Assembly (NCBI GenBank): GCA_947853665.1
Contig: CANTXF010000034.1
Coordinates: 34,805-98,804 of the forward strand
DNA length: 64,000 nt
DNA from: an uncultured Deferribacterales bacterium
GTDB taxonomy: Bacteria > Chrysiogenota > Deferribacteres > Deferribacterales > Mucispirillaceae
Reading direction: 5' to 3'
Shown here piece by piece: positions 7,265 through 49,428 of this stretch. The notes beneath the pieces were generated by a model, which worked only from the letters and a program-made list of their open reading frames with translations, did no database searches and was not told where the DNA came from. Numbering within the stretch: position 1 is the stretch's first letter; each line of letters begins with the position of its first letter. A program made the position numbers and the translations under genes.

Positions 7265-7358
7265 CCTCCGCGTTTGCTCCGGAACAAGTCAAAGACCTTG
7301 ACAATTGCTGTATTCTGTTTATTATCTACACTATGAAAGCACTAGAGGGGGACTAACT

Positions 7359-7634
7359 ATGACAAAAGCAGACATGGTTGAAAGCATTCATGAAAAATTC
7401 GGTCTTACAAAAAAAGTCATAGCCAAAGTCGTGGACGATGTTTTCGAAAAAATCCGCGCGGACATACTTGAAGCCAAAAATGTCAAAATATCCGGTTTCG
7501 GCAACTTTGAAGTAAAAAAACGCGGCAGGCGCATAGGCCGCAATCCGAAAACAGGCGTGGAAACCGTAATACCTCCCCGCACTGTGGTAGTGTTCCGCCC
7601 CAGCCAGATATTTAAAGATGAGGTAAATGGATAA
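7359..7634 (+). CDS. hup: HU/IHF-family DNA-binding protein
   Basis: MTKADMVESIHEKFGLTKK...GFGNFEVKKRGRRIGRNPKTGVETVIPPRTVVVFRPS is a typical HU/IHF. A GAGGGGG RBS sits 7 nt upstream. The longer listed ORF uses a TTG in the promoter region. Confidence 0.85.
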   Translation: MTKADMVESIHEKFGLTKKVIAKVVDDVFEKIRADILEAKNVKISGFGNFEVKKRGRRIGRNPKTGVETVIPPRTVVVFRPSQIFKDEVNG

Positions 7635-9934: not shown

Positions 9935-10090
9935 TCAGGGAACTCCCTTCGTCCGTTCACATTTTGATGGAAGGACATAAATAGCAGAAAAAGTATATTT
10001 TTTCCAGAAAAAACACAGGCCATCGCCGATATATGGCAGGAAAATTGCTATATAGATACGGGGACAACTGTCTCCCGGGAAAAGTTTTCC

Positions 10091-10118: not shown

Positions 10119-10164
10119 TTTACCGTAAGGATAAAGGCACCGAAATAAAAAAGGAGGTCACGCA

Positions 10165-12990
10165 ATGGAATCTATGCGAGTGGGCGGTCTCGTTTCCGGT
10201 CTCGACACCAACGCCATAATCGAAAACCTTATGACGACGGCCAAAGAGCCTATAAACCGCATGAATGAAAAGGTCGACCTCCTTACCTGGGAGCAGACCC
10301 AATACAACGACATCCTTACCGCCCTGAGCGACCTTAAATCCGCCCTGCTGCCTTTAAAAATGGAAAGCACTTTCAAAAGCAAGCTGGCAACCTCCACGTC
10401 TTCTGACATCGCAGGAGCCACCGCCAGCGTCAACACTCCCCCGGGGTCATATACGCTGAAAGTGGACCAGACCGCGGAACCGTCCTACGCCGTAAGCACT
10501 TACACCAATTATGCCATGATTAAAAACGGGGCCGGAGTGGAAGGATTTTCCTCCCTTACCAAATATAAATACAACCAGATAGAGGGCCAGCATAAAGTAA
10601 CCGTAACGAACTCCGGTTCAACATGGATAGCTACGGATACGTTTACTTCCAAATCCAATCAGAAATTTAATAAAATGGCCGCTTCCGCGATGGATTCTTC
10701 CCTTGTGGACAGCAATGGCAAGCTTAAAAGCGGCGTAAACGAAACCCTTTCTTTCGTTTTTACATACAACGGAGAGGCAAAATCCGTTGACCTCAGCATG
10801 GATTATCCGGCCGGAACATACGTTACGACCATAGCCCAGGATCTGGAGCAGAGGATAAACGCCGTAATAGATAAAAATCTCAGCAAAGACGGAGGCCAGA
10901 GCCTTGCTATACGGGTGGACAGGGACGAAACCACCGGCGCTTTCAGCTTCGGCTTTTACGACACCACAAACGATTCAAAAATAGAGGTAATCGGCTTCAG
11001 AGACCCTAATTACGACCCGTCCAACCCCAGCGCGACGGACGGCTCCGCCGCCACGGCTCTGGCAAAAAATCTGGGAGTATATTTTAACCAGGATATAAGC
11101 CAGCCGGTTTCAACCTCCGAAATGACCAACACGGTCGTATCCAACAGCGCGGAGAATCTGGGCAAAAAAATTAACAGCGCCGAAGGCGGCCTCATTATGG
11201 GCGCCCAATTCAAATTCGCTTCCGGCGGCCTTGAAACCGGAACCTTCTCCGTAAACCAGGACTCGACCGCCAACAATAGGGTAGCCTCGAAATCGACCTT
11301 TACCGGAGCCACCTTTTCAAAGCTCGCCTCGGCCACGGACGAAGAAATAGACGCCTGGATGAAAACGGCCCTCGGCGCCGCAGACTCCGACGACAGCAGC
11401 GGCAAGCCTTATACGAGAAACTTTTTCGACACCCAGCCAAGCGATGATACGAACGGCTTTTTCCATATAAACGGGGTAAGAATAGATATAAACGATTACA
11501 GAACCCTTACCCCCGAAAGGCTTATAGGCCTTATAAACGGTTCCGGGGCGGGCGTCACGGCTTCATTCGACAGGGACGAAGGCGTATTCAAAATAGAAAG
11601 CAACACGCCGGGCTCCGGCGACGTTACCATGGGGCAGGACGGAGACACTTCCGACATCCTCTCTATAATGAAGGTTACGATACCATCGGGCGCCACTTAC
11701 ACGAGAGGCAAAACCGACGGCACCATAGACACCTCCGCCAAGCTGTCCGGAACGGACAGCGGCCTGACTACGTCCATAACAAGCGGGATTTTCACGATAA
11801 ACGGGGTTTCCATATATGTGGACACTTCCACGGATACCCTTGAAAGCGTAATGAAGAAAATAAACAGCTCCGGAGCGGGAGTAACCATAAACTACGACTC
11901 CACCACGGATAAATTCTCCATGTCCGGCACAGGTACGGAAAGGATAAAGCTGGGAAGCCCCAACGACTCGTCCAATTTTCTCGCGGCCATAAACCTTACC
12001 TATAACGCATACGAGGAAATAGAAGTCGGTTCGGAGGGAAAAAGCGCCGTATTCACCATAAACGGAACGAAATACACCAGAGATTCCAATACCGTTACGG
12101 ACGCCGTGGCAGGAATGACTATAAATATATCGGATACCGGCACAACAGTAATAAACGTGAGCATAGACACCGACAAAGCGGTAGACGCTATGGCCGGGTT
12201 CGCCGCGAAATACAACGAGCTTATGAACAAGCTCTCACCAACGGAGCCTTCCGACTCGGACAGGGACAAATACAGCGAGGCCCTGTCGGATGAAGATAAG
12301 GCCGATATGTCCGAAGACGAAATAAAAACTTACGAAACGAACTACAACCGTATCCAGTATTACGATATGGTATCGAAAAGCTCGGAGCTGCGTTATCTGA
12401 AAATGAACCTGCGCAGCAATATAATGAACGAGGTAGTCCTTTCCAATAATAAATTCAGAAGCCTGAGCGACCTCGGGGTAATTATCGCCGGGTCGGACAC
12501 CAGAAACACCGATGTTACGAAGCTCGGTCTTTTGTTCGACGTATCCACGGATAAGGAAGAGCTGGCGAAGTATATAAAGGAAAGCACGGATTTTGTATCC
12601 ACAGTAACGGAATATCCCGACGACGTGTATAAATTCTTTACGGAAAATACGGAAGTAAAGATTTCGAAATCCACCGGAAAGGTAATAACCGATTCCAACA
12701 GCAAGGAAGAATACACAACGGTAACATATACCGGCTGGGCGCGCCGTTACGACACGTTTCTCGTAAACAATACTTCCACGACTTCCACCCTTTATAAAAA
12801 GGCCGGCACCAACGGCACGCTGGATACTCAAATAAGCAATTTAAAAAAACAGATAGAAACCCAGACAATCAGAGCGGAAAATTACCTTGAGCGCATGTGG
12901 GCTCAGTTTGCCGCGATGGAAGAAAGGGTACAGAATATGCAGACGCAGGCAAGCTATCTTACTCAAATCAGCGGCTTATCGTCCAGTTAA
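10165..12990 (+). CDS. fliD: flagellar filament cap protein FliD (unusually long, 941 aa)
   Basis: The N-terminus MESMRVGGLVSGLDTNAIIENLM is the FliD signature. The C-terminus is a coiled-coil FliD_C-like region. A GGAGG RBS is present. The central region is expanded with Thr/Ser/Asp/Gly-rich sequence. Confidence 0.8.
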   Translation: MESMRVGGLVSGLDTNAIIENLMTTAKEPINRMNEKVDLLTWEQTQYNDILTALSDLKSALLPLKMESTFKSKLATSTSSDIAGATASVNTPPGSYTLKVDQTAEPSYAVSTYTNYAMIKNGAGVEGFSSLTKYKYNQIEGQHKVTVTNSGSTWIATDTFTSKSNQKFNKMAASAMDSSLVDSNGKLKSGVNETLSFVFTYNGEAKSVDLSMDYPAGTYVTTIAQDLEQRINAVIDKNLSKDGGQSLAIRVDRDETTGAFSFGFYDTTNDSKIEVIGFRDPNYDPSNPSATDGSAATALAKNLGVYFNQDISQPVSTSEMTNTVVSNSAENLGKKINSAEGGLIMGAQFKFASGGLETGTFSVNQDSTANNRVASKSTFTGATFSKLASATDEEIDAWMKTALGAADSDDSSGKPYTRNFFDTQPSDDTNGFFHINGVRIDINDYRTLTPERLIGLINGSGAGVTASFDRDEGVFKIESNTPGSGDVTMGQDGDTSDILSIMKVTIPSGATYTRGKTDGTIDTSAKLSGTDSGLTTSITSGIFTINGVSIYVDTSTDTLESVMKKINSSGAGVTINYDSTTDKFSMSGTGTERIKLGSPNDSSNFLAAINLTYNAYEEIEVGSEGKSAVFTINGTKYTRDSNTVTDAVAGMTINISDTGTTVINVSIDTDKAVDAMAGFAAKYNELMNKLSPTEPSDSDRDKYSEALSDEDKADMSEDEIKTYETNYNRIQYYDMVSKSSELRYLKMNLRSNIMNEVVLSNNKFRSLSDLGVIIAGSDTRNTDVTKLGLLFDVSTDKEELAKYIKESTDFVSTVTEYPDDVYKFFTENTEVKISKSTGKVITDSNSKEEYTTVTYTGWARRYDTFLVNNTSTTSTLYKKAGTNGTLDTQISNLKKQIETQTIRAENYLERMWAQFAAMEERVQNMQTQASYLTQISGLSSS

Positions 12991-33353: not shown

Positions 33354-33425
33354 GAACATAACGGTCAACCGGATAAATGCCTGCGTAACAACGGCCTTAA
33401 GAAGCAGGCGTATAATTTTGCGGCG

Positions 33426-35324
33426 ATGAGAACCATAGCGTTATATATTATCATATTATCCGCCGTTCTGTATTCAGGGCACGGCTATTGCGGCCAGTGC
33501 AGGATAATCTACGGTATCTACGATAATTATAAACCGTTCGAATGGTACGAAGCTGGTGTTCCTAAGGGTATTAATATAGAGCTGCTTAAAGCCGTGTCAG
33601 AAAAAGCCGGCTGCGAATATGGCTTTATTTCCCGCCCCTGGCCGGAAATGCTAAAAATGCTGGAAAACGAAGAAATAACCATGCTGTCGGCATCCATGAC
33701 CCCCGAACGCCTGACAAACTTCATACAGCTGCCGCCTTCTTTCGTCCAATACAGAATATTTATTGCAAGAAAAGGCTCCGGGCACGCAGCCGGGCTTTCA
33801 TCCCTGAGGAAAAAAACGGTTTTGGCGCTGAAAAACAGCGTGGCGTGGGAAAAGCTATCAAAAGGCCCGTACGACGTAAAGCTGATACCCTGCTCTTCCG
33901 AAACGGACGCGCTGAAAAAACTATCGGAAGGCTCAGGGGATTTCGCTTTCGTGGACGACAGCTCGGAAATTATTGAAAAAGTAGAAAAATCTGGGCTTAT
34001 AATAGCCAGCGAACCGATGTTCCCCACTCTGTACGGATTTATGATGAAGCAGAACAGCCCCTATTTCAGCAGGCTGAGCAAAGCGGCGGAGGAGCTGAAG
34101 GCCACTGGGCAGTATTATAAAATAATAGAAAGAAGCAAACAGTATAAATACAGCCGTCTCACAAAAATATTCCTTATATCCGCGGCTGTATGCGCAGCCG
34201 TATTTTCCGCCGCTTTTCTGTGGATAAAATCCCTCTCCGTGTCGGTGCGCCGCAAAACAAAAAGTCTGAACAAAGAGATATGCGCGCGTATAAATACGGA
34301 AAAAATGCTGCGCGAAGAAACGGAAAAACGCAAAAAACTGCTGGAACTCCTGGAAACGGTGCTTAAAAGCATACCGGAATCAATATTCCTGTCCGACGAA
34401 AACGGAAAAATAGTGTGGAGCAACCGTGGTGAAACGCATATTATACCCTCATACATAAAAGATAAAATAACGGATATAAAAAAGAGCTCCGGGCCTAGAG
34501 AATTTTCATACGAAGATGCGGACGGACGCGTATGGAAAATACTTGCGTCCGATTTCGTTTATGGCGGAAAGGACGGTACCCTGCTGGTAGCCGGCGACAT
34601 AACGGAAAATATAAAACTCAGAAACGAGCTTTTTATGACGGGCCGCTACTCCGCCCTCGGAGAAATGGCCGCGATAATAGCTCACGAAATAAATAACCCT
34701 ATCGGATGTATAATACATAATTTTTCATATATAAATAAACTTATAGAAAAATACGGCATTGAAAATAAAGATATGGACGCGGCGGCGGAGGATATATCGG
34801 CGTCGGTAAGGAAAATAGCTTCGATAATAAGCGAATTAAAGGAATATACGGGCAGGAATATAAAGACCTACGAAAAGGTAAGCTTAAAAAAATGCTTCCG
34901 CAGCGCTTACGGAATGACCAGATTTATGATAAATAAATACACCCGTAATTTTACCGGGGATATTAAGGATACGGCAAATATACTCGGAAATTACGGACAG
35001 ATAGAGCAGATGATGATAAACGTAATACAAAACGCCTGCTACGCTCTGACAGATAAATCGGCCGCGATAAAATGCTCGCTTTACGAAAGCGGAAACGAGG
35101 TACACTTTAAAGTGGAGGACGAGGGAACCGGTATGGACGAGGACGCGCTTAAAAACGCGTGCGACCCTTATTTTACCACAAGAAGAGAAAGCGGCGGAAC
35201 GGGCATAGGTTTATCCCTTACATCCAGATTTATGAAGGAACACGGCGGCAGCCTGTTAATAACAAGCGAAAAAGGAAAAGGCACATCGGTAACGCTTTCA
35301 TTTCCCGCCTGTAAGGAGCCTTAA
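33426..35324 (+). CDS. sensor histidine kinase with a periplasmic solute-binding (SBP_bac_3-like) domain, TM, PAS-like, HisKA and HATPase domains
   Basis: Signal/TM, a periplasmic amino-acid-binding-protein-like region, a second TM, an H-box (AHEINNPIG), and N/G-boxes (GGTGIGLSL). Confidence 0.8.
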   Translation: MRTIALYIIILSAVLYSGHGYCGQCRIIYGIYDNYKPFEWYEAGVPKGINIELLKAVSEKAGCEYGFISRPWPEMLKMLENEEITMLSASMTPERLTNFIQLPPSFVQYRIFIARKGSGHAAGLSSLRKKTVLALKNSVAWEKLSKGPYDVKLIPCSSETDALKKLSEGSGDFAFVDDSSEIIEKVEKSGLIIASEPMFPTLYGFMMKQNSPYFSRLSKAAEELKATGQYYKIIERSKQYKYSRLTKIFLISAAVCAAVFSAAFLWIKSLSVSVRRKTKSLNKEICARINTEKMLREETEKRKKLLELLETVLKSIPESIFLSDENGKIVWSNRGETHIIPSYIKDKITDIKKSSGPREFSYEDADGRVWKILASDFVYGGKDGTLLVAGDITENIKLRNELFMTGRYSALGEMAAIIAHEINNPIGCIIHNFSYINKLIEKYGIENKDMDAAAEDISASVRKIASIISELKEYTGRNIKTYEKVSLKKCFRSAYGMTRFMINKYTRNFTGDIKDTANILGNYGQIEQMMINVIQNACYALTDKSAAIKCSLYESGNEVHFKVEDEGTGMDEDALKNACDPYFTTRRESGGTGIGLSLTSRFMKEHGGSLLITSEKGKGTSVTLSFPACKEP

Positions 35325-36700
35325 TGTCCATCCTGATTATAGACGACGATACGAAATGGGTCGACGGGATAGCCCGTACCCTTGAGGCTTTCGGAATAGC
35401 CGAACGAAACGCAATATTCAAAGCCTCCTCTCCGGAAACGGCCTTTAACGCTCTTGCGGAACGCGAACCCGATTTGATACTGCTTGATCTTTTTCTGGAC
35501 GGAGCCTCCGGGGAGGATTTACTCGAAGAAATGCTCCGAAACCACCCGGACAGGCATATTGTAATCATGACCGGTTCCGACAGCGTAAAAAACGCCGTCA
35601 GCTGCATTAAAAAGGGAGCGAAAGACTATTTTGTAAAATCAGCGGACGAGGACGAACTGATGAACAACATCAGGCGAATTATGAGAATAAGAACCCTCGA
35701 AAAAGAAAATGAGGAGATTAAAAAAATCGCTGAAAAAGAAAGGGATTACGGCGATTTTAAAGAATATATAACATACAGCCCGGCTATATTTTCTTTATTC
35801 GAATACGTAAAAAGCATAGCAAAAACGTCCAACCATATATTGATAACCGGCGAAAGCGGCGTGGGAAAGGGAATTTTCGCCAAAATAATATCATCCGTCA
35901 TGCGTGGGGATAAACCTTTCATATCTGTAAACGTTGCCGGATACGACGACCAAATGCTCGCAGATACCTTATTCGGCCATATCAAAGGCGCTTTCACTGG
36001 AGCCGCCTCCACAAGACAGGGCATAATAAAGAAAGCTTCAGACGGAGTGGTATTTTTAGACGAGATAGGAGATCTCTCCGTGCAATCGCAGATAAAACTG
36101 CTCTGCCTTTTACAGGACGGAATATACCAGCAATTAGGCAGCGACGATTTTATAAAAACGCCCGCAAAATTCATATTCGCCACAAACCAGAATCTTATAG
36201 AAAAAATGAACGACGGCCGCTTCAGAAGCGATCTTTATTTCAGGCTCAGCACTCATAAAATCCACATTCCCCCTTTAAGGGAAAGGCCGGAAGATATTAT
36301 GCCCCTGTGCTCGTACTTTGCAGGCGAAGCGGCAAAAGAGTTGGGTAAGGCAAAACCGGGCTTTACCGAATCCTTTAAGGATAAAATAATGTCGATGAAA
36401 TTTCCCGGAAATATAAGACAGCTTCGCGGGGCGATATATGATTTGACTGCACGATGCGGCGAAATCATAGACGGCAAGGATGTGGAAAAGCTCATGCATA
36501 CGGACGGGCTGTATGAAAGCCGGACGAAGCCGCGCTCCGGACGCAGTATGGATAAAGACTTTCCCACCATAGAAGAAACCACCGATAAACTCATAAAAGA
36601 AGCCCTTGAAATATCGGGAGGAAATCAGCAGAGAGCGGCGTATCTGCTCGGCATATCCCAGCCTACCCTCAGCCGCCGCCTGAAACGTATGGGTCTTTAA
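35324..36700 (+). CDS. sigma-54-dependent response regulator (NtrC family: REC + AAA+ + Fis-type HTH)
   Basis: REC domain (ILLDLFLDG), a sigma-54 interaction domain (GESGVGKG plus a GAFTGA-like motif), and a C-terminal HTH (QQRAAYLLGISQPTLSRRLK). The ATG overlaps the kinase stop (TAATG). Confidence 0.85.
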   Translation: MSILIIDDDTKWVDGIARTLEAFGIAERNAIFKASSPETAFNALAEREPDLILLDLFLDGASGEDLLEEMLRNHPDRHIVIMTGSDSVKNAVSCIKKGAKDYFVKSADEDELMNNIRRIMRIRTLEKENEEIKKIAEKERDYGDFKEYITYSPAIFSLFEYVKSIAKTSNHILITGESGVGKGIFAKIISSVMRGDKPFISVNVAGYDDQMLADTLFGHIKGAFTGAASTRQGIIKKASDGVVFLDEIGDLSVQSQIKLLCLLQDGIYQQLGSDDFIKTPAKFIFATNQNLIEKMNDGRFRSDLYFRLSTHKIHIPPLRERPEDIMPLCSYFAGEAAKELGKAKPGFTESFKDKIMSMKFPGNIRQLRGAIYDLTARCGEIIDGKDVEKLMHTDGLYESRTKPRSGRSMDKDFPTIEETTDKLIKEALEISGGNQQRAAYLLGISQPTLSRRLKRMGL

Positions 36701-36716
36701 GCCTTTATTTATTTCT

Positions 36717-36733
36717 TTATTCATTTTGAATAA
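36717..36733. promoter_or_regulatory. perfect palindrome TTATTCA-ttt-TGAATAA, candidate enhancer (UAS) for the NtrC-like activator
   Basis: Perfect palindrome located about 60-75 bp upstream of the sigma-54 -24 element. Confidence 0.3.
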
Positions 36734-36792
36734 AAAAACGAATAAAATCCCTACATTCTTTAATTTTATCTTTATTTGACAATAAGTTATCT

Positions 36793-36807
36793 TTGGCACG
36801 CCTTTTG
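36793..36807 (+). promoter_or_regulatory. sigma-54 (RpoN) promoter, TGGCAC-N5-TTGC
   Basis: Exact consensus -24 GG and -12 GC elements (TGGCACgccttTTGC) about 35 nt upstream of the bicupin ATG. An AAGGAGG RBS follows. Confidence 0.65.
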
Positions 36808-36842
36808 CCTTAATACGTTCAGCTTAAAGCAAGGAGGAAAAT

Positions 36843-38018
36843 ATGAAATTATCAGGAATTATGCTATGCGCTCTTTTGCTGTTCCCAGCAGCGCTCTGCG
36901 CGGGAGAATACCCCACTCCCGGCAGATTAGACGGAACCACGGCTTTTTTCAGCGAAAATGACGCCCCGAAAAAAGCTAACAAATCTTACCCCGAGTGGTA
37001 TCGCGGAAAAGGCGGAGACGGTCTTGCGGACGAAAGCGCCCTATATTTCTACAAAGAGCTTATAGGGCCGTCGTCCTTCGTTAAAAAGGGCCATAATAAC
37101 GATTACTTCTATATGGGAACCCTGGAGCTGAAACCGGGCGAAACGTACCCCGCCCATAACCATCCGTCAAAAGAAATATATTACGTGATAGAAGGCGAGG
37201 CTCAATGGTATGTGGACGACGAAAGCCGCACGGTAATCGCCGGGGATATGATATATCATGCCCCGTACGCGGCCCACGGATGGAAAAACCTTTCCGACAG
37301 CAAGCCTCTGAAAGTGGCATGGATATGGTGGGCTTCCGGCGACAAATCGGTCATAGAAAAAGGCGCCAGATTTACGAACCCGGATTTGTTTTCCTCAAAA
37401 GACAAGGTAAAGCCCTATCCCGTGCCGCTGCCGAAAGTAAGGCTGAACGAAAACGATAAAGCGAATGTAAAATACGGCGAATATCCGGTTCCCGGCAGAA
37501 TTGCGGGAACGTCGGCTTTCGTCCATGAAAACGCCACGCCGAAAAAAGCCACTAAAAGCCATCCGAAATGGTTTCGCGGAACGGGAGAAAACGGCATAGC
37601 AGATGAAAACGCCAAATATTTTTATCACGAACTCATCGGGCCGAATCTGCCCAAACCCGCCATAGACGATTCACATATATACTTCGGACCGCTGGAGCAG
37701 AAATCGGGCTATGTTTACCCAGCCCATAACCATCCGGCTCAGGAAATATATTACGTCATATCGGGAGAGGCTCAATGGTATGTGGATGATGAAGAACAGA
37801 CCGTAAAAGCCGGTTCTCTGATATATCACAGACCTTACGCGGCCCACGGGTGGAAAGTAACCAGCAAAGAGCCGCTGAAAATGATATGGGCATGGTGGGC
37901 GGAAGAAGACCCGTCCGTTCTCAGCGTAAGCGCAAAAATGATAAATCCGGAAACTGCCTCGGACGAGAAAACGGCGCTGCCCTATGCTAAGCCTGTTCCC
38001 CCTGTAAGGAAAAAATAA
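36843..38018 (+). CDS. secreted tandem bicupin protein (internal duplication, two roughly 190 aa cupin units with HNHP...E...H metal-site motifs)
   Basis: Signal peptide. Two repeats share about 60% identity (GEYPTPGR.../GEYPVPGR...; YPAHNHPSKEIYYVIEGEAQWYVDDE / YPAHNHPAQEIYYVISGEAQWYVDDE). Confidence 0.7.
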   Translation: MKLSGIMLCALLLFPAALCAGEYPTPGRLDGTTAFFSENDAPKKANKSYPEWYRGKGGDGLADESALYFYKELIGPSSFVKKGHNNDYFYMGTLELKPGETYPAHNHPSKEIYYVIEGEAQWYVDDESRTVIAGDMIYHAPYAAHGWKNLSDSKPLKVAWIWWASGDKSVIEKGARFTNPDLFSSKDKVKPYPVPLPKVRLNENDKANVKYGEYPVPGRIAGTSAFVHENATPKKATKSHPKWFRGTGENGIADENAKYFYHELIGPNLPKPAIDDSHIYFGPLEQKSGYVYPAHNHPAQEIYYVISGEAQWYVDDEEQTVKAGSLIYHRPYAAHGWKVTSKEPLKMIWAWWAEEDPSVLSVSAKMINPETASDEKTALPYAKPVPPVRKK

Positions 38019-38024
38019 CATAAC

Positions 38025-38042
38025 CATACCCTTACACAGATT
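38025..38042. repeat. left arm of an 18-bp perfect inverted repeat (ATACCCTTACACAGATTA) bounding the 38.0-42.2 kb island
   Basis: Exact reverse complement at 42173-42190. Weaker flanking similarity extends to about 38018-38080 versus 42100-42195. Confidence 0.7.
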
Positions 38043-38620
38043 AGCATAAAGTGATGTAAAATGCTTATAATACAGCGGCTTGCCCACAATAATGAAGAAC
38101 CTTGCCCAAAGCGCTTTAATAAGGCCCGTTCCGGGGCGTGAGGTTCCCGAGTTTGCATTGCCGCGCAAGCGTGATGACGAATGATTTGCCCATATATGGA
38201 AAACAAGGCGCATAAATAAAGCTCGTCCCATTTTTAGCGCCGCGAAGCTGATATTATAATTATATTACGTCGCTGGATAGTTACCGAAAATAATATTCCC
38301 TTCGCACAAGCGCCGGAAAAACCGGCGCTTTTCTTTTAACGCCGCGGTAATACCGCCGTCCGTTTTATTTTTGCCGTAACGTAAGCGAAAAATCAAGGCG
38401 CGATACCGCCCTCCGGGGTTTTTATATATCCCGTTTCCGGCTCATTAAAAACAAAAAAAGCAGTTTTCCCTATATAAAAATTATTAGATACTGCGCAAAC
38501 CGGCCGGCCCGGCAGCTTATTGAGGCAGCCGGCCGGATATCGCGCAAGCTGCATAATCCGGCCGAGGCACGTTTAAGATAACAGCCGTCTCTGTAAAATC
38601 CGGACAGAAAATATAGTATT

Positions 38621-38648
38621 AAAGGGCACGTTAAAAAACGTGCCCTTT
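38621..38648. terminator. perfect 12-bp stem hairpin (AAAGGGCACGTT-aaaa-AACGTGCCCTTT), terminator-like or protein-binding palindrome
   Basis: Seen directly in the sequence, immediately downstream of the minus-strand antidote gene stop. It has no strong T-run. Confidence 0.35.
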
Positions 38649-38656
38649 AATATAAA

Positions 38657-38998
38657 CTATAAATTACCTTTTTTATCCATAGGAACGATAGCAAGCTCGT
38701 AACCCACGGAAGCTAGAATCCTGGATACTGTATCCAGAGTAGGATTTGAATCCTCGCCCATGACGGAATAAAGACTTGATCTCGGAATCCCGGCCGCTCT
38801 CGCGGTACTCACGACGCCCCGGGAGCGTATAAGTATCGTAACCACTTTCACTATGGACCTCGGCGAACCGTCAGGTATATACCTGAGGGGGTCTATCGCA
38901 GCGAGGTCCACCTTGAGCCTTTTACAGCCCTTTAAATCCTCCATGACGTTTTCACGCCATACTTCCGAAAGAGACAGTCTGCTGTTCTTCATGTTCAT
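38657..38998 (-). CDS. addiction-module antidote protein (HigA-like HTH, TIGR02684-like), apparently orphan
   Basis: ARAAGIPRSSLYSVMGEDSNPTLDTVSRILASVGYELAIVP matches the conserved core of the probable-addiction-module-antidote family. I found no RelE/ParE-like partner ORF upstream. Confidence 0.55.
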   Translation of the reverse strand: MNMKNSRLSLSEVWRENVMEDLKGCKRLKVDLAAIDPLRYIPDGSPRSIVKVVTILIRSRGVVSTARAAGIPRSSLYSVMGEDSNPTLDTVSRILASVGYELAIVPMDKKGNL

Positions 38999-39086
38999 AA
39001 TGCGTGCACCAGCCTAATAAAAGAATAAATCACGCCGCTTTATTTTTAAACTATAAATAAAAATATTTTTTAGCAAGAACTAATTT

Positions 39087-39249
39087 TTAAAAATAATATA
39101 AATACAAATATTTATACAAATATATTTGCCTAAATATATTTTTTAATATCAATAAGTTATAAGATTTATAAAACGAAACCGAAAGACGAACGAAAGCATA
39201 GGCCGCAATTAATTGTTGCGTAACCGTCAGATATACAATATTATTTACT
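39087..39249. promoter_or_regulatory. extremely AT-rich divergent promoter/operator region with direct repeats (TACAAATAT x2) and a CAATTAATTG palindrome
   Basis: Direct reading shows aaatacaaatatttatacaaatatatttgcc and a CAATTAATTG palindrome about 35 bp upstream of the repressor ATG. Confidence 0.35.
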
Positions 39250-39963
39250 ATGTTTACAAAAAGACTTGCAAAATTGCTCAAAGACAACAGGATCAAAAAT
39301 ACAGAACTTGCCAATTACCTGAAAGTAAGCAAATCTGCCGTAAGTAAGTGGCTTAGCGGGGAGGCGGAGCCAAGACCTGAAACGCTACGTCAGATGGCAA
39401 AATTTTTCAACGTGTCGGCCGGTTATCTGATTAACAACGAGGATTTTAAACCGGCGGACGGAATGAGGGAAACAAGAAGCGATATTTATCCCTCCATAGT
39501 CTACTCTCAGGAAGAGCCAAAACGTGTGGAAGGCTTTATATGGCTTCCCGTATATGAAACCAAAATAAGCGCTACCCCCGGAATACCGGATATAGCGCGC
39601 GAGGAAGTAATCGGCTGGCACTCCGCGCCGGAATCCCTTATGGGCTCCTCCGCGGACTCTCACGGCAGGCCCTTCTCCATGAAAGTGGCCGGAAAGTCCA
39701 TGCTTCCGCTGATAAAGCCAGGCGATTACCTTACCGTACGCCCGGCCCCTTTTATTCTGCCGGAGCCGAACCAGATATACGCCGTAAAAATAAACGACGA
39801 GGCTTCCGACATCTCAGGCATAGTTGTAAAAAGGGTACAGGCGGACACGGCGAGAAAAATCTTTCTCCTGCGTTCCGACAATCCGGAATACCCGGTATAT
39901 GTGGCCGATAACGACAAAGCCGCCATAGTAGGCCGCATAATCAGTATATGGCGGCCGCTTTAG
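39250..39963 (+). CDS. XRE-family HTH plus S24 (LexA/CI-like) peptidase repressor
   Basis: N-terminal HTH (TELANYLKVSKSAVSKWLSG). C-terminal S24 domain with Ser (GKSM) and Lys (VKRV) catalytic dyad positions. Confidence 0.7.
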   Translation: MFTKRLAKLLKDNRIKNTELANYLKVSKSAVSKWLSGEAEPRPETLRQMAKFFNVSAGYLINNEDFKPADGMRETRSDIYPSIVYSQEEPKRVEGFIWLPVYETKISATPGIPDIAREEVIGWHSAPESLMGSSADSHGRPFSMKVAGKSMLPLIKPGDYLTVRPAPFILPEPNQIYAVKINDEASDISGIVVKRVQADTARKIFLLRSDNPEYPVYVADNDKAAIVGRIISIWRPL

Positions 39964-40488: not shown

Positions 40489-40660
40489 ATCCGCCCCGCC
40501 ATAAAAGGAAAGTTTTTCTCACATAACGCCATGAGCAATGGCATAAAAATTGCTTCTCCAACGATAACCAAAGCGAGGTGCGGCATGACAGGAAAAACGT
40601 TCGTATTTTTTACCATTTTCGCAATATTAGCCATAATAACCAATTCCATTTCCTAAAAAA

Positions 40661-44584: not shown

Positions 44585-45853
44585 ATGGATAAATCCGTAT
44601 ACGCGGCGTTAAAAAGGATATTCGCGGCCCTGCTTCTTCTGAACACGGCGGTAATACTCATTGTGGTATATCTTGCCTTTTCCAATTACGCCTCCCAGCG
44701 CAAATCCCTTATAGAAATGGGCTATACCGTCCTAAGAGCTTTCGAGGCGTCGCGCCCGATGGTGTTTTCCAGCGGCGGCAACGCCCACCTTACGCAGATA
44801 CTGGAAGAAATGTTCGACCTGGATACGATAAACAACATCGTAATCTACCGCCAGGACGGAAAAACGATATTCTCCCTCCATCCTCAGGAAAATCTGATAA
44901 AAACCGGCGTGCACAGCAGATATATGGAGGAAACGCCAGGGGAGCTGATACTTTATAACAGCTTTCATCCGACCGGCATGGGAATGGGAGGAGGAAGCCA
45001 CATGATGCGGGGCGGCCATATGGGCCGGAACGGCGACAGCAAAATATTCATCGCCATCGCTATAAACAAGGCTAACCTTAATTCCATATTGAATTACAGC
45101 GTACTTACTTTTTTAGCCGCGGCTCTTGCGGAGCTTATGATATTTTTCCTGTACTCCAGGATACGTCAGGTGGTAAAGCTGTACGAGCAGTCCGTAACGG
45201 AGCTTAAAAATGCGGAAAAGGAAGCCGCAACCGGAAGGCTGGCATCAGTTTTGGCCCATGAAATAAAAAATCCTCTTTCAAGTATGTCCGGCCTTTTGTC
45301 CTTCGCCGGGAAAAAATGCGAAGACGGCCTGATAAGCGATATAATAGATAAAACCCAGGACGAGGTTAAGCGTCTTTCCGATATAGTAAACGATTTTCTC
45401 ACATACGGAAGGAGCGTAGAGCTGCAGCTTTCAACAGTGTCCGTAAAAAGCCTGATAACTAAAACGACGGAGCTTTTAAGCCACGACGCGGCGGCTAAGA
45501 ACGTATCCTTTGCCGTATCGGAAACGGATTTTACCTGCACGGCGGACGAAAACAAATTTCTGCAGATATTCGTAAATCTGCTCCTTAACGCCATAGACGG
45601 CTCTCCGAAGGACGGGGAAATAAAAATACGGATAGACGAAAAATCCATGAAAGTGCAGATCGAAAACGAAACGGCCAAACCGGCCGCGAAAGACGCGGAA
45701 AAATTTTTCGAGCCTTTCTATACGACCAAAACGAAAGGCAGCGGCCTGGGCCTCTCCATAACGAAACGCCTTGTGGAGCTCCACGGATACGGTATAAAAA
45801 TATCGAGCACCTCCCCTTTTATCGTGGAAATATATTTCCGCCGCAACGGATGA
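44585..45853 (+). CDS. sensor histidine kinase (TM, HisKA, HATPase_c)
   Basis: H-box RLASVLAHEIKNPL and G-box GSGLGLSITKRLVELHGYG. Two TM helices flank a periplasmic segment. Confidence 0.75.
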   Translation: MDKSVYAALKRIFAALLLLNTAVILIVVYLAFSNYASQRKSLIEMGYTVLRAFEASRPMVFSSGGNAHLTQILEEMFDLDTINNIVIYRQDGKTIFSLHPQENLIKTGVHSRYMEETPGELILYNSFHPTGMGMGGGSHMMRGGHMGRNGDSKIFIAIAINKANLNSILNYSVLTFLAAALAELMIFFLYSRIRQVVKLYEQSVTELKNAEKEAATGRLASVLAHEIKNPLSSMSGLLSFAGKKCEDGLISDIIDKTQDEVKRLSDIVNDFLTYGRSVELQLSTVSVKSLITKTTELLSHDAAAKNVSFAVSETDFTCTADENKFLQIFVNLLLNAIDGSPKDGEIKIRIDEKSMKVQIENETAKPAAKDAEKFFEPFYTTKTKGSGLGLSITKRLVELHGYGIKISSTSPFIVEIYFRRNG

Positions 45854-45857
45854 TATA

Positions 45858-47153
45858 ATGAAAAAAATACTTATAGTCGACGACGAAAAAAACCATCGCC
45901 TTATGATGCGCCTGCATCTGGAGGACGCGGGATACGAATGCTTTGAAGCCGAGGACGGGGAAACGGCCTACGGCATGATAAAAGAGCTTTCTCCCGACCT
46001 TATTCTTCTCGATATAACCATGGAGATAACGGACGGGCTTACTCTGCTGGGCAGAATAAGGAAAGAGGGCGTCTCCGCGCCTACCGTAATGATAACCGCC
46101 CATACGGACGCAAAGACGGCAGTATCGGCAATGAAGCTGGGCGCCACGGATTTTATAACAAAGCCCGTAAATATAAACGAAATGCTTGAAACGGTAAAAA
46201 GCCTGCTGGAATCCGGCGGAAACGAAGAAGTTCCCGACGCGGCGGGATATAAATTCGACGGCGTTTTCGCCTCCGAAGCCATGACGGACGTTATGAGCCT
46301 TCTGGCGATGGCGGCTCCCACTGACGCAACCGTGCTTATTCTTGGCGAAAGCGGCACCGGCAAGGAGCTGGTGGCAAAATCGATACACGAAAATTCGCTC
46401 AGGGCGGAAAAGCCCTTTGTGGCGGTAAACTGCGCGGCTCTTAACGATAACCTGATAGAAAGCGAGCTTTTCGGGCACGTGAAAGGGGCCTTTACGGGAG
46501 CCACGTCGAACAGGCAGGGAAGGTTCGAACAGGCCTCCGGCGGAACCATATTTCTCGACGAGCTGGGCGAAATACCAATGCCCACGCAGACGAAGCTTTT
46601 AAGGGTATTGCAGGAAAAAGTGATAGAACCCGTCGGATCCGGAAAAGCGGTTAAAACGGACGCTAGGATAATCGCCGCCACCAACAGGGATTTAAAGAAA
46701 ATGTCGGAATCGGGAGAATTCCGGCAGGACCTTTATTTCAGGCTGAGCGTATTCCCCGTTACCATACCCCCCTTGAGAGACCGCCCGGGAGACATACCGC
46801 CGCTTATAAAACATTTTATAAAAAAATACGCGTTCAGCTTCGGAAAAAATATACAGGCCGCATCTCAGGACTATATAGACGCTTTACAAAATTATTCCTT
46901 TCCCGGAAATATACGCGAGCTTGAAAATATAGTGGAAAGAAGCATAATACTGGCCAGAGGAGACAAGCTCACGGCGGACACCCTGCCCGCTCTGGCGCAG
47001 GAAAACGGGCTCAATCTCAAAAACGGGGAAAAGCAGTCCATATTGGACGCCCTAAAACGCTCCGGCGGAAACAAGACAAACGCCGCGAAGCTTTTGGGCA
47101 TATCGCGGCGCGCTCTTTACTATAAACTTGAGCAGTACGGCATAGCCGACTGA
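45858..47153 (+). CDS. sigma-54-dependent response regulator (NtrC family)
   Basis: REC domain, AAA+ sigma-54 interaction domain (GESGTGKE plus GAFTGA) and a C-terminal HTH. Confidence 0.85.
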   Translation: MKKILIVDDEKNHRLMMRLHLEDAGYECFEAEDGETAYGMIKELSPDLILLDITMEITDGLTLLGRIRKEGVSAPTVMITAHTDAKTAVSAMKLGATDFITKPVNINEMLETVKSLLESGGNEEVPDAAGYKFDGVFASEAMTDVMSLLAMAAPTDATVLILGESGTGKELVAKSIHENSLRAEKPFVAVNCAALNDNLIESELFGHVKGAFTGATSNRQGRFEQASGGTIFLDELGEIPMPTQTKLLRVLQEKVIEPVGSGKAVKTDARIIAATNRDLKKMSESGEFRQDLYFRLSVFPVTIPPLRDRPGDIPPLIKHFIKKYAFSFGKNIQAASQDYIDALQNYSFPGNIRELENIVERSIILARGDKLTADTLPALAQENGLNLKNGEKQSILDALKRSGGNKTNAAKLLGISRRALYYKLEQYGIAD

Positions 47154-47244: not shown

Positions 47245-49428
47245 TCAGTGTATCCAGAAAATCTCCTGATACCTGGGCAGGGGCCATTTGTCGTCGTCAA
47301 CGAGAAGCTCCAGAGAATCAACGTGAAAACGGCACTTATCCATAAGAGGAAGTATTTCGTCCCTGTAACGCAGGCACCGGCCGTAAGTATCGTTTTTTGC
47401 GGAAGTTATGCTTTTCATGGCTTCGTCTAGCCCGTCAAGTGATTTTTTAAGACCCGCTATATGGCCTGAGACCTCCGCAAGCAGCTCTTTCTGGGCGGAA
47501 GTGTCCGCCCCGTCGCCCGCCGCGGCTTTAACGGCGCAGATGTTGGCCGCCAGTTTGGACTGATAATCGAAGCAGACTGGCAGGATAATATTGCGGCCGA
47601 TATGGGACGCGGAGCGTGCCTCAATGGCTACTGTTTTAGCGTAGGACTCGAAAAGTATCTCCTGCCTTGCCGGAATTTCTTTTTCCGTAAGCACGTTGAA
47701 ACGGGTAAACATTTCCACAAGCTCAGGGTCTGTAAAACGCTTTATGGCGTCCACCGAGTTGCCCAGGTTTGGCAGCCCTCTCCGTTCGGCTTCCTCCACC
47801 CATTCTTTCGTATAGTTGTCCCCGTTGTATATTATGGCCTCGTGCTCCTTAAAAAACCTTACGAGAATATCCCTGACAGCCTGGCTGAAATCGGCCCCGG
47901 CTATCATGGCGTCCTCCAGGGCGGTAGCCACGTCGTCCATAGCGCAGGCTACGGCTGCGTTCATTACGAAAACGGCCTGCGCAACAGGCTGGGAAGAGCC
48001 TAAAGCGCGGAATTCAAACTTATTGCCGGTAAAAGCCATAGGGGAAGTCCTGTTTCTGTCCGTGGCGTCCACAGGCAGCGGCGGCAGAGTAAGCACTCCC
48101 AGGTCTATAGAGCCGCCGTGGCTTCTGTGGTCGTTCTTATTGTAAATGATGTTATGAACCACCTCGTCCAGCTGCGTGCCCAGAAACACGGATATTATGG
48201 CCGGGGGAGCTTCGTTTCCACCGAGCCTGTGGTCGTTTCCGGCGCAGACCGTGCCCAGGCGGAAAGCGGCGGCGTATTTATGCACCGCTCTCAGAAAGGA
48301 AGCGAGAAACACAAGAAACTGGGCGTTCTGCTGGGGGGTTTCTCCCGGCTCCAGAAGGTTATTGCCCTCCGAATCCGCCAGAGACCAGTTATTGTGCTTG
48401 CCGCTGCCGTTTACGCTGGCAAAAGGCTTTTCGTGAAGCAGGCATACGAAGTTATGGTCTTTAGCCGTTTCCCTCAGCACGTTCATAACTATTATGTTAT
48501 GGTCCGAGGCTATATTGGCCGCCTCGTAAACGCAGGCTATTTCATACTGGGCCGGAGCCACCTCGTTATGGCGCGTTTTGACGGGAACCCCAAGTTTGAA
48601 AAGCCTCTCCTCCGCGTCCGTCATAAAAGCCAGCACCCTGGACGGTATGGCGCCGTAATAATGGTCCTCAAGCTCCTGCCCTTTAGTGGCTTTAGCCCCG
48701 TAAAGGGTGCGGCCCGTGCTTATAAGATCCGGCCTCTGCAGATAAAACTCCCTGTCTATAAGGAAATATTCCTGCTCGGCTCCGATGGTGTTTATAACGT
48801 CCGTAGCCTTACTGCCGAAAAGCCCCAGTATGCGCAGAGCCTGTTTAGAAACGGCCTCCACGGATTTCATCAGCGGAACCTTCCTGTCCAGGGCCTCGCC
48901 CGTGTAGGAAAGAAAAACTGTGGGAATACACAGGGTTTTGCCGTATTTGGTTTCGTTTATGAAAGCAGGCGACGTAGGGTCCCAGGCGGTGTATCCGCGG
49001 GCTTCGAAAGTGGAGCGTATCCCGCCGGACGGAAAAGAGGAAGCGTCCGACTCGCCTTTTATAAGCATTTTGCCGGAAAACTCCGATATTACCTGCCCGT
49101 TGGGGGCAAGGGAAGTAAAAGCGTCGTGTTTCTCCGCCGTCTGGCCCGTCATGGACTGGAACCAGTGGGTATAATGGGTAGCCCCGAGAGACACAGCCCA
49201 GTCCTTCATGGCGCTTGCGACAATATCCGCCAGGGACGGGTCCAGCTTCTCCCGGCTGTTCATGGTCTGCTGGAGCCTTTTGAAAACGTCTTTCGGAAGG
49301 CGCTCTCTCATAACCCTTTCGCTGAACACGTTGCATCCGTAAATATCGGCTATTTCCGCCCTGTTCTCAGGACATCCTTCCGCCGGGCGGGAGGATATGG
49401 TGCTTATCGCTCTTTTCCTGAAATTCAT
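47245..49428 (-). CDS. glnN: glutamine synthetase type III
   Basis: 727 aa. The N-terminus and overall length match GS-III (GlnN) of the Bacteroides/anaerobe type. Confidence 0.8.
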   Translation of the reverse strand: MNFRKRAISTISSRPAEGCPENRAEIADIYGCNVFSERVMRERLPKDVFKRLQQTMNSREKLDPSLADIVASAMKDWAVSLGATHYTHWFQSMTGQTAEKHDAFTSLAPNGQVISEFSGKMLIKGESDASSFPSGGIRSTFEARGYTAWDPTSPAFINETKYGKTLCIPTVFLSYTGEALDRKVPLMKSVEAVSKQALRILGLFGSKATDVINTIGAEQEYFLIDREFYLQRPDLISTGRTLYGAKATKGQELEDHYYGAIPSRVLAFMTDAEERLFKLGVPVKTRHNEVAPAQYEIACVYEAANIASDHNIIVMNVLRETAKDHNFVCLLHEKPFASVNGSGKHNNWSLADSEGNNLLEPGETPQQNAQFLVFLASFLRAVHKYAAAFRLGTVCAGNDHRLGGNEAPPAIISVFLGTQLDEVVHNIIYNKNDHRSHGGSIDLGVLTLPPLPVDATDRNRTSPMAFTGNKFEFRALGSSQPVAQAVFVMNAAVACAMDDVATALEDAMIAGADFSQAVRDILVRFFKEHEAIIYNGDNYTKEWVEEAERRGLPNLGNSVDAIKRFTDPELVEMFTRFNVLTEKEIPARQEILFESYAKTVAIEARSASHIGRNIILPVCFDYQSKLAANICAVKAAAGDGADTSAQKELLAEVSGHIAGLKKSLDGLDEAMKSITSAKNDTYGRCLRYRDEILPLMDKCRFHVDSLELLVDDDKWPLPRYQEIFWIH

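Follow-up and report, generated by a model that had tools for sequence, protein, structure and literature searches.

A two-component system, a sigma-54 promoter and a putatively secreted cupin-DLL bicupin form a compact cassette in an uncultured Deferribacterales bacterium

Within the analyzed stretch of 64,000 nucleotides from the genome of an uncultured Deferribacterales bacterium (contig CANTXF010000034.1 of assembly GCA_947853665.1), hereinafter the window, positions 33426–38018 contain three consecutive genes that encode a sensor histidine kinase, an NtrC-family response regulator and a bicupin, that is, a protein consisting of two cupin units, with an exact sigma-54 promoter located in front of the bicupin gene. 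The initial annotation of this DNA, made from the sequence without database searches, interpreted the locus as a dedicated signaling module in which the kinase and the regulator control a secreted bicupin through an RpoN-dependent promoter. The comparative analysis presented here assigns the bicupin to a superfamily, identifies an orthologous cassette in a different phylum and leads to a proposal on the function of this system.

Organization and conservation of the cassette

The features of the cassette are the following.

33426–35324, plus strand: sensor histidine kinase, 632 amino acids (aa), from Pfam domain matches
35324–36700, plus strand: NtrC-family sigma-54 enhancer-binding response regulator, 458 aa, from Pfam domain matches
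36704–36746, no strand: extended inverted repeat, putative upstream activator sequence, from arm complementarity (the function is a prediction)
36794–36808, plus strand: sigma-54 (−24/−12) promoter TGGCACGCCTTTTGC, an exact match to TGGCAC-N5-TTGC
36831–36837, plus strand: ribosome-binding site AAGGAGG, read from the sequence, 5 nt 5' of the ATG at 36843
36843–38018, plus strand: bicupin open reading frame (ORF), 391 aa, from the translation
36843–36902, plus strand: putative Sec-type signal peptide, 20 aa, with cleavage between LCA and GEY, read from the sequence
36903–37475, plus strand: cupin-DLL unit 1 (residues 21–211), from Pfam Cupin_2 and DMSP_lyase matches and invariant columns
37476–38018, plus strand: cupin-DLL unit 2 (residues 212–391) and the stop codon, from Pfam matches and invariant columns
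38308–38330, plus strand: terminator-like hairpin AAGCGCCGG-AAAAA-CCGGCGCTT followed by TTCTTTT, from the terminator scan

The kinase contains a SBP_bac_3 domain (residues 27–236) between an N-terminal signal or transmembrane segment and a second transmembrane segment at about residues 245–268 (read by eye in the translation), followed by a linker or PAS-like region and by the core, which comprises a weak HisKA match with the H-box AHEINNP and a HATPase_c domain (residues 524–628). This is the arrangement of a Venus-flytrap sensor kinase, and the closest solved relative of the periplasmic domain is annotated as a ‘Sensor protein’ (3h7m, 1e-19), the next matches being ArtJ, glutamine-binding proteins and HisJ, all of which bind amino acids, in agreement with the type of sensor that was initially proposed. 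In the PDB alignments, the segment SASMTPER retains the Ser-x-Ser-x4-Arg pattern of ArtJ, and the Asp in FVDD pairs with an Asp of ArtJ; in HisJ, LAO and ArtJ, the Arg and Asp in these positions contact the carboxylate and ammonium groups of the ligand. Because these contact positions of amino-acid-binding proteins are retained, the ligand of the sensor would be a small solute that combines a carboxylate with an onium group or a positively charged nitrogen, as far as such distant alignments can tell. The protein in 3h7m is the Venus-flytrap domain of Geobacter HK29, which was crystallized in a closed, ligand-free form (PMC4352136). The window kinase shares with HK29 and BvgS the single binding-protein-like domain between two membrane segments but differs from BvgS in that its output is directed to a sigma-54 regulator and not to one of the BvgA type, and from HK29 in that the carboxylate and ammonium contact positions are retained, which suggests that the window sensor has a real small-molecule ligand.

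Upstream of the kinase, the 72-bp gap that separates it from yicC contains a TATAAT hexamer (33411–33416) only 10 nt 5' of the kinase ATG, preceded by a GCCTGC...GCAGGC inverted repeat, such that the kinase and regulator genes may have an almost leaderless mRNA or may share a transcript with yicC.

The stop codon of the kinase gene and the start codon of the regulator gene overlap in TAATG (35322–35326), as the initial annotation had read. The regulator has the complete domain composition of the NtrC family, namely, a receiver domain (Response_reg, 2e-19), an AAA+ domain (Sigma54_activat, 1.8e-50, with AAA_lid_14) in which the Walker A motif GESGVGKG and the GAFTGA motif are legible in the translation, and a C-terminal Fis-type helix-turn-helix (HTH_8). 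The pair resembles the DctBD and AauSR systems, in which, likewise, a periplasm-facing kinase and an NtrC-family regulator acting at a −24/−12 promoter serve the acquisition of extracellular carboxylates, but differs from them in that the sensor is a single SBP_bac_3 Venus-flytrap domain, whereas that of DctB is of the PDC/Cache type, in that the only evident target is a single gene for a secreted enzyme, and in that the regulator scores below all NCBIfam equivalog cut-offs, the nearest models being those of the NtrC, AtoC and PEP-CTERM regulator types. Besides carriers, the AauSR system has been linked to AnsB, an enzyme of the periplasm (PMC7962211).

The promoter is the only exact match to TGGCAC-N5-TTGC on either strand of the 64-kb window, compared with 0.04 expected from dinucleotide-preserving shuffles; it is intergenic, adjoins the activator gene and lies 34 nt 5' of the bicupin ATG. 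The initial annotation had recognized this element correctly but placed it one position too early, at 36793–36807. Transcription is predicted to start near 36819–36821 and likely ends at the hairpin at 38308–38330, which has a T-run and a 9-bp stem, 7 pairs of which are GC, is located 290 nt past the bicupin stop codon, and belongs to a strong, bidirectional terminator-like structure at 38308–38344. Although the window lacks rpoN, the organism very likely uses RpoN because the window also contains a second sigma-54 activator and a near-consensus −24/−12 element 5' of fliD (see the last section).

An orthologous cassette, with a SBP_bac_3 kinase, a sigma-54 regulator, an exact promoter and a bicupin in the same order, is present in the loci designated L002–L006, which encode P0002, the closest relative of the window bicupin that is found on long contigs. 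Between the window and L002, the kinases and the regulators are, respectively, 48% and 53% identical over their full length, and the bicupins are 73% identical. Both ligand positions of the sensor are retained in the L002 kinase (SASMTPKR and IIDG), and the exact promoter, TGGCACTGTTATTGC (10057–10071), lies 47 nt 5' of the true ATG at 10119, the same as in the rest of L002–L006. The L002 host is Enterobacterales-like, with a ptsI-crr region that shows 80% nucleotide identity to Escherichia coli, whereas the window host belongs to Deferribacterota, its elongation factor G (EF-G) being 75% identical to named Deferribacteres sequences, those of Deferribacter and Flexistipes. Given that the same cassette is found in such distant hosts, it either spread between phyla as a unit or was kept intact in both of them.

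For P0002, the deposited gene call (L002 10001–11296) starts 118 nt early, yielding a product of 431 instead of about 391 aa; the overextended start takes in the promoter along with the greater part of the spacer, and the real ATG at 10119 follows GAGGATGGAGCATT.

We scanned the upstream regions (350 nt) of 15 other family members for −24/−12 elements. The promoter is present in both loci that carry the two-component system, and none of the 13 family members that lack it has such an element in a plausible position, so that promoter and activator co-occur. Sigma-54 control as a trait of the entire family can accordingly be rejected, being restricted to the two lineages with the two-component system; in the bicupin-family locus L007, for example, a sigma-70-like TTGCAA...TATAGG was read by eye instead. 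Together, the domain matches, the syntenic cassette in another phylum and the co-occurrence of promoter and activator uphold the initial interpretation of a dedicated kinase, regulator, RpoN promoter and secreted bicupin, and we consider this regulatory architecture highly probable.

The 142-bp spacer between the regulator stop codon and the bicupin ATG contains, in this order, a palindrome, the promoter, AAGGAGG and the ATG. The core palindrome, TTATTCA-N3-TGAATAA, is perfect and spans 36717–36733, as the initial annotation had it; it starts, however, 17 bp after the regulator stop codon and not 176 bp downstream of the gene pair. It is the center of a larger inverted repeat with 20-nt arms (36704–36723 and 36727–36746) that are 85% complementary and separated by 3 nt; the repeat begins 4 nt past the regulator stop codon, and its center is located about 70 bp upstream of the GG of the −24 element. 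Within it, GAATAAAA is repeated 12 nt apart, and GAATAAA-type half-sites recur with a 12-bp period.

Two interpretations of this repeat have to be weighed. As RNA, it has a predicted folding energy of −8.6 kcal/mol and folds better than 200 out of 200 shuffled sequences (z = −4.4), which, along with its position directly after the stop codon, would fit a weak, AT-rich hairpin that ends or stabilizes the kinase-regulator transcript, the enhancer then being located elsewhere, for example, inside the regulator coding sequence. Perfect 7-nt inverted repeats are, by our estimate, not rare in AT-rich DNA, and the match between the window and L002 is confined to a 13-nt block. There is, however, no T-run after the repeat on either strand, and the terminator scan did not list it; because the T-run is absent, this is not a canonical terminator, and an intrinsic terminator is not favored, although we retain it as part of the rival explanation. 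The half-sites, with their 12-bp period, are about 70–90 bp upstream of the −24 element, a distance that is typical of the sites of enhancer-binding proteins. Furthermore, the related half-sites TGAATAA, TTATGCA and TGCATAA are found in the same position in L002, directly 3' of the regulator stop codon, such that half-sites of the GAATAAA/GCATAAA type follow the regulator gene in both cassettes, and the two regulators have almost the same recognition helix. On balance, the inverted repeat is probably a binding site for the activator, whereas the hairpin explanation appears rather unlikely.

The bicupin and its family

The N-terminus of the bicupin, MKLSGIMLCALLLFPAALCA followed by GEY, reads by eye as a Sec signal peptide, and a hydrophobic N-terminus that ends immediately before the GEYP motif is present in nearly all full-length homologs; judging from this reading and its conservation, the protein is presumably exported. 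The alternative of a lipoprotein signal was rejected by eye, both cysteines being in an L-C context that is incompatible with a lipobox. The mature part consists of two units that are 57–58% identical, each with an N-terminal extension of about 70 aa (GEYPxPGR...YPxWYRG...) followed by a cupin barrel. Unit 1 contains the motif HNHPSKEIY (H105, H107, E111, Y113), followed by H145 and W163, and unit 2 contains HNHPAQEIY (H295, H297, E301, Y303), followed by H335 and W352. These residues are invariant across 22 aligned bicupins, with the exception of H295, which is replaced by Q or another residue in a few, and are also conserved in single-unit homologs. Thus, both the two diverged cupin units behind a signal peptide and the metal-ligand positions in each of them (H105/H107/E111/H145 and H295/H297/E301/H335) were identified correctly at the outset.

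The bicupin matches Cupin_2 with 115 bits and PF16867 (DMSP_lyase) with 66.4 bits, against a cut-off of 27, in two stretches, one per half; for 47 of the 48 homologs described below, the PF16867 match is precomputed, and one family member carries the PGAP/NCBI name ‘dimethylsulfonioproprionate lyase family protein’. Lei et al. (10.1101/161257) describe a cupin-DLL superfamily that was built on PF16867 and is defined by six active-site residues, namely, those of HxHx3ExY, a His in the second motif, and a Trp or Tyr that ends that motif. Each half of the bicupin exceeds the Pfam threshold and contains all six of these residues, with Trp in the last position, so by these sequence marks the bicupin is a member of the cupin-DLL superfamily. 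A profile of the family finds DddQ (5cu1) as the best match in the PDB (1.3e-9); counted from the alignment, His180 of 5cu1 pairs with H145 and H335, and Trp195 with W163 and W352. The initial annotation had left the function of the bicupin open, whereas its superfamily is now assigned.

Compared to the known members, the bicupin has the PF16867 match in common with DddQ, DddK, DddW, DddL and DddY, the spacing of the HxHx3ExY, His and Trp signature in common with DddQ (5cu1 and 4la2), and, with the superfamily in general, a small metal cupin fold and a native substrate that is as obscure as those of most other members. It differs in its low identity to DddQ and DddK (21–23%), in the N-terminal extension, which is confined to about 27 clusters at 50% identity, in the signal peptide, which marks its clade, and in its tandem duplication. 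To our knowledge, the known cupin Ddd enzymes are all single-cupin proteins. We consider it highly likely that the bicupin is a periplasmic metalloenzyme; a lyase-type chemistry is plausible but tentative, with the odds slightly against it.

The AlphaFold model of the bicupin consists of two cupin barrels, with a pLDDT (predicted local distance difference test) of 91.4 over the full length; the model of a single unit reaches 88.5. The initial annotation had suggested comparing the structure with oxalate decarboxylase, quercetinase and pirin-type bicupins, and this comparison turned out not to be decisive: all that the bicupin has in common with oxalate decarboxylase, quercetinase and vicilins is a generic two-barrel packing, at 11–17% identity, so fold comparison cannot assign a function to the bicupin. 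A bicupin of a classical type (oxalate decarboxylase or oxidase, quercetinase-type dioxygenase, pirin, or a hydrolase similar to ureidoglycine aminohydrolase) would be compatible with the set of three His and one Glu that forms the metal site of OxdC and is also found in YxaG of Bacillus subtilis, seed vicilins and the periplasmic MncA and CucA, and weak NCBIfam similarity to gentisate dioxygenase and ureidoglycine aminohydrolase was detected. However, the NCBIfam scores are 27–33 bits against cut-offs of 200–445, no NCBIfam or Pfam model specific to oxalate decarboxylases, quercetinases or pirins was matched above its cut-off, the sequence searches rank DddQ first, and the Tyr of ExY and the terminal Trp are marks of cupin-DLLs. 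An O2-dependent dioxygenase is further disfavored by the host, given that Deferribacterota are an anaerobic lineage. Finally, the bicupins of this family arose, recently and more than once, by duplication of a gene for a secreted single cupin (see below) and hence do not descend from the classical bicupin lineages. Taken together, these observations make a classical bicupin quite improbable.

The family is small. A search of 5.8 billion clustered proteins with the bicupin yielded 48 relatives at E ≤ 1e-3, and among 1.84 billion representatives, a single-unit profile retrieved only 27 clusters (50% identity) at E ≤ 1e-30 that span the entire unit, with the weaker matches covering only the cupin core; a scan of contigs with the bicupin added a single weak match, a Peribacillus cupin that is 24% identical. 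The clade is marked by the 70-aa extension before the barrel (GEYPxPGR..GTTAF...YPxWYRG...AD) and by the signal peptide. Its members come from Deferribacterota, Enterobacterales and contigs labeled as human gut, along with many contigs that, from their identifiers, we assume to be soil-derived; one member is from a Shewanella strain, which we take to be a marine isolate.

About half of the members are single units of 215–250 aa, and about half are bicupins. In the clade of the window bicupin, the two halves of a protein differ by about 43%, compared with 15–27% between orthologous halves, whereas in P0009–P0011 and P0017 (loci L013, L014, L016 and L022), the two halves of the same protein are 83–93% identical, more similar to each other than to any ortholog. 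Because of this pattern, as read from the sequences, tandem duplication, or else homogenization by gene conversion, has occurred independently at least three times, which suggests that the single-unit form functions as a dimer that is made permanent in the bicupins. Some distant members have a C-terminal unit in which ligands are missing; both sites of the window bicupin are intact. The rarity of the clade and its span, its secretion, the repeated duplication and the recurrent neighbors described below suggest a selected function.

Gene neighborhoods and possible functions

Genes for anion carriers recur next to members of the family. A DcuA/DcuB carrier is encoded directly upstream in L013/L014/L016, L020 and L022, a DASS carrier immediately 3' of the cupin gene in L002 as well as in L024/L025, where the family member is a single unit, and a TauE-family permease downstream in L007. 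In L015 (61–7981), the plus strand encodes an acyl-CoA dehydrogenase, an ADP-forming CoA ligase, a BCCT carrier and, 83 bp after the latter, a bicupin, whereas the minus strand encodes a short-chain dehydrogenase/reductase (SDR) and a CaiD-like hydratase. The best solved match of the ligase is the lyase DddX, which acts on dimethylsulfoniopropionate (DMSP) (7cm9, 8.6e-56), with 3-hydroxypropionate-CoA ligase scoring almost equally, and the dehydrogenase is nearest to acryloyl-CoA reductase and crotonobetainyl-CoA dehydrogenase. The L015 ligase ORF is not called in the deposited annotation and includes a run of masked residues.

In the human-gut contigs L026–L029 (for example, L028 1372–7479), a single-unit member is divergent from an operon that encodes a flavoprotein with a Tat signal (MSITRRSFLGAL), which passes the model of the flavocytochrome c subfamily, together with a phosphonate-binding-protein-like sensor kinase and a LuxR-type regulator; an RpiR regulator follows downstream. 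An argininosuccinate-lyase-like enzyme, of the fumarate-lyase type, is encoded beside the cupin in L024 (3834–5324, minus strand) and about 4 kb away from it in L009 (2330–3910, minus strand), and the two enzymes, from different organisms, are 49% identical. They score below the argH cut-off, with an equal score against the coenzyme-M enzyme XcbC, and their best PDB matches are 6rx8 and 6g3d, which we take to be EDDS lyase. In addition, OYE-type Fe-S flavoenzymes of 660–673 aa are encoded near two further members. The common themes of these neighborhoods are the transport of C3–C4 (di)carboxylate-type anions, elimination reactions that produce 2-enoates or fumarate, and the reduction of such double bonds.

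By analogy, these themes appear to match the logic of the periplasmic DMSP lyase DddY and the acrylate reductase ArdAB of Shewanella woodyi, without singling out DMSP. DddY, a cap domain with one cupin, is, like the window bicupin, a secreted cupin-DLL of about 400 aa, with a plausible role in making an anaerobic electron acceptor, and the relative in L028 lies beside a Tat-exported flavocytochrome-type flavoprotein much as dddY lies beside ardA. The differences are that no sequence relationship is detectable beyond the cupin motifs, that the window contains no acu or ard genes, and that the bicupin has two barrels and is under the control of a sigma-54 two-component system. In S. woodyi, DddY acts together with ArdAB, acrylate induces dddY, and a separate gene in the dddY/ardAB cluster encodes a transcriptional regulator (10.1101/2024.02.11.579808). 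No DddY chain was found among the PDB sequence matches (E ≤ 0.01) or the profile matches (E ≤ 0.001) of the bicupin, which, with its two barrels, accordingly appears to fall outside the DddY family; for homology to DddY, Lei et al. (10.1101/161257) set a criterion of at least 30% identity over at least 90% coverage.

These parallels raise the possibility that the bicupin is a true lyase of DMSP or dimethylsulfoxonium propionate (DMSOP) and a functional analog of DddY, in which case acrylate set free from algal DMSP outside the cytoplasm would serve the anaerobe as electron acceptor or carbon source and the sensor would detect DMSP or acrylate. The PF16867 membership with all six cupin-DLL active-site residues and the putative periplasmic location are in line with this, as are the L015 member located 83 bp past a BCCT carrier and near a DddX-like ligase and an acryloyl-CoA-reductase-like dehydrogenase, the L028 member next to a flavocytochrome-type reductase in an arrangement reminiscent of dddY and ardAB, and the member from the presumably marine Shewanella strain. 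Yet the identity to DddQ and DddK is low, no DddY structure is among the sequence matches, the L015 ligase fits a 3-hydroxypropionate-CoA ligase nearly as well, and the most common neighbors are C4-dicarboxylate-type carriers, not acrylate-detoxification genes. Family members come from the human gut and, as we assume, from soil, habitats where DMSP is scarce. Moreover, according to Lei et al. (10.1101/161257), most cupin-DLLs are not DMSP lyases and have no known native function, DddQ itself probably being promiscuous. DMSP is therefore an improbable substrate of the bicupin.

Catalysis itself might be questioned. Abundant periplasmic cupins without a known reaction exist, among them MncA and CucA of Synechocystis, and the bicupin, which is presumably secreted, has two intact metal sites in each chain and adjoins no catabolic genes in the window, could similarly bind or buffer metal, with the cassette sensing metal or stress. 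Against this possibility, the non-ligand Tyr and Trp and the 70-aa extension are invariant across the family, which fits substrate handling better than metal storage; genes for organic-anion carriers and carbon-skeleton enzymes recur alongside family members; and the sensor resembles amino-acid-binding proteins rather than metal sensors. We regard a metal-buffering role as very improbable.

The explanation that we favor, and consider probable, is that of a compact, horizontally mobile sense-and-respond cassette which, upon ligand binding, induces a metal-dependent lyase of the periplasm whose substrate is a carboxylate that carries a leaving group. Under this scenario, the SBP_bac_3 flytrap domain would bind a small solute bearing a carboxylate and an amine or onium group, and the kinase would autophosphorylate and pass the phosphate to the NtrC-type regulator. 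The regulator would then oligomerize on the inverted repeat immediately 3' of its own gene and, using ATP, open the complex of RpoN and RNA polymerase at the downstream promoter. The resulting mRNA, with its short leader, would be translated into a Sec-exported protein of two tandem cupin-DLL units, each presumably holding a divalent metal, by His107, Glu111 and His145 in unit 1 and by His297, Glu301 and His335 in unit 2, with the neighboring His, Tyr and Trp completing each pocket. Like the cupin DMSP lyases, the bicupin would eliminate a beta (or equivalent) leaving group from a periplasmic carboxylate, and the anionic, unsaturated or dicarboxylate-type product would be imported, considering that DcuA/B or DASS carriers are encoded next door in relatives. 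Alternatively, the product could be reduced in the periplasm, as might be the case for the relative that adjoins the Tat-exported flavocytochrome-type reductase.

Several observations weigh against this scenario. Each step rests on sequence and models, and, as noted above from the study by Lei et al., most members of the superfamily are not DMSP lyases; DMSP as a general substrate is disfavored by the occurrence of the family in the gut and, presumably, in soil. A homology search with the isolated periplasmic domain returned no matches at E ≤ 1e-3, not even the kinase itself, so that the ligand class was assigned from alignments to distantly related binding proteins. Because just one independent ortholog of the cassette that includes a two-component system was found, the conservation of the promoter and of the binding site rests on two lineages; furthermore, both intergenic regions are AT-rich, so the 7-mers they have in common could be due to chance. 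In the window, no transporter, reductase or catabolic gene adjoins the cassette, and the neighborhoods of the relatives are heterogeneous.

Extending the lyase scenario to the entire clade, we put forward, as a speculative and rather unlikely generalization, that the cupins with the GEYP extension constitute an unrecognized class of periplasmic lyases whose native substrate would be not DMSP but another abundant carboxylate with a good leaving group, such as an onium, sulfonate or N-substituted dicarboxylate compound, part of which have been packaged into a mobile, cross-phylum sense-and-cleave cassette, their products feeding anaerobic respiration or C4-dicarboxylate uptake in sediment, soil and gut. 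The data suggest, more broadly, that under anoxia the clade processes a carboxylate outside the cytoplasm, be it a nutrient or an electron acceptor. All types of components involved are known, namely, sigma-54 two-component systems, flytrap sensors and cupin-DLL proteins. In the limited literature searched, we found no description of the secreted clade with the extension, of its repeated tandem duplication or of its recurrent neighbors, nor of a secreted clade packaged with a dedicated sensor and a sigma-54 switch that is common to different phyla.

Given that the cassette couples one enzyme gene to its own sensor of an extracellular ligand, this ligand should point to the substrate and, if the proposal is correct, would directly disclose which reaction a cupin-DLL clade catalyzes in nature. 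Lei et al. (10.1101/161257) acknowledge the native function of most cupin-DLLs as an open question, and the cassette offers an exceptionally clean way to approach it by experiment. Should the substrate be DMSP or a related sulfonium compound, the production of dimethyl sulfide would extend to Deferribacterota and gut bacteria; should it be a different one, the cupin-DLL superfamily would gain a new reaction. The regulatory part is textbook and would be of practical use mainly as a defined pair of a sigma-54 promoter and an enhancer.

Surrounding genes and other sigma-54 elements in the window

Upstream of the cassette, the window encodes YicC, an SPFH protein and CoaBC. Downstream of the bicupin, about 640 bp (38019–38656) contain no convincing ORF, and Rfam detected nothing above chance, either in the window or in 36650–39300; a second terminator-like hairpin is present in this gap at 38617–38652. 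The next genes encode an antitoxin of the HI1420-downstream type (38657–38998, minus strand) and a CI/LexA-like repressor with HTH_3 and Peptidase_S24 domains (39250–39963, plus strand). In L009, the bicupin, which is 61% identical to that of the window, likewise adjoins an HTH_3/S24 gene (6884–7534), along with small phage-like ORFs and a gene for a TIR-domain protein, which hints that the cupin travels with mobile DNA.

The second sigma-54 pair in the window (44585–47153, plus strand) consists of a HisKA/HATPase kinase and a regulator with REC, Sigma54_activat and HTH_8 domains (45858–47153) and adjoins a gene for type III glutamine synthetase (47245–49428, minus strand), so that the three genes look like an NtrBC-like nitrogen module. 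The near-consensus −24/−12 element TGGCAGGAAAATTGC at 10034–10048 (plus strand) is located 117 nt 5' of fliD (10165–12990, plus strand) and suggests, at the sequence level, that flagellar genes of this organism are under sigma-54 control; the filament-cap protein FliD itself is unusually long, at 941 aa. A further −24/−12-like element, TGGCATAAAAATTGC at 40539–40553 (plus strand), is followed by no plausible plus-strand gene, its neighbors being located on the minus strand.

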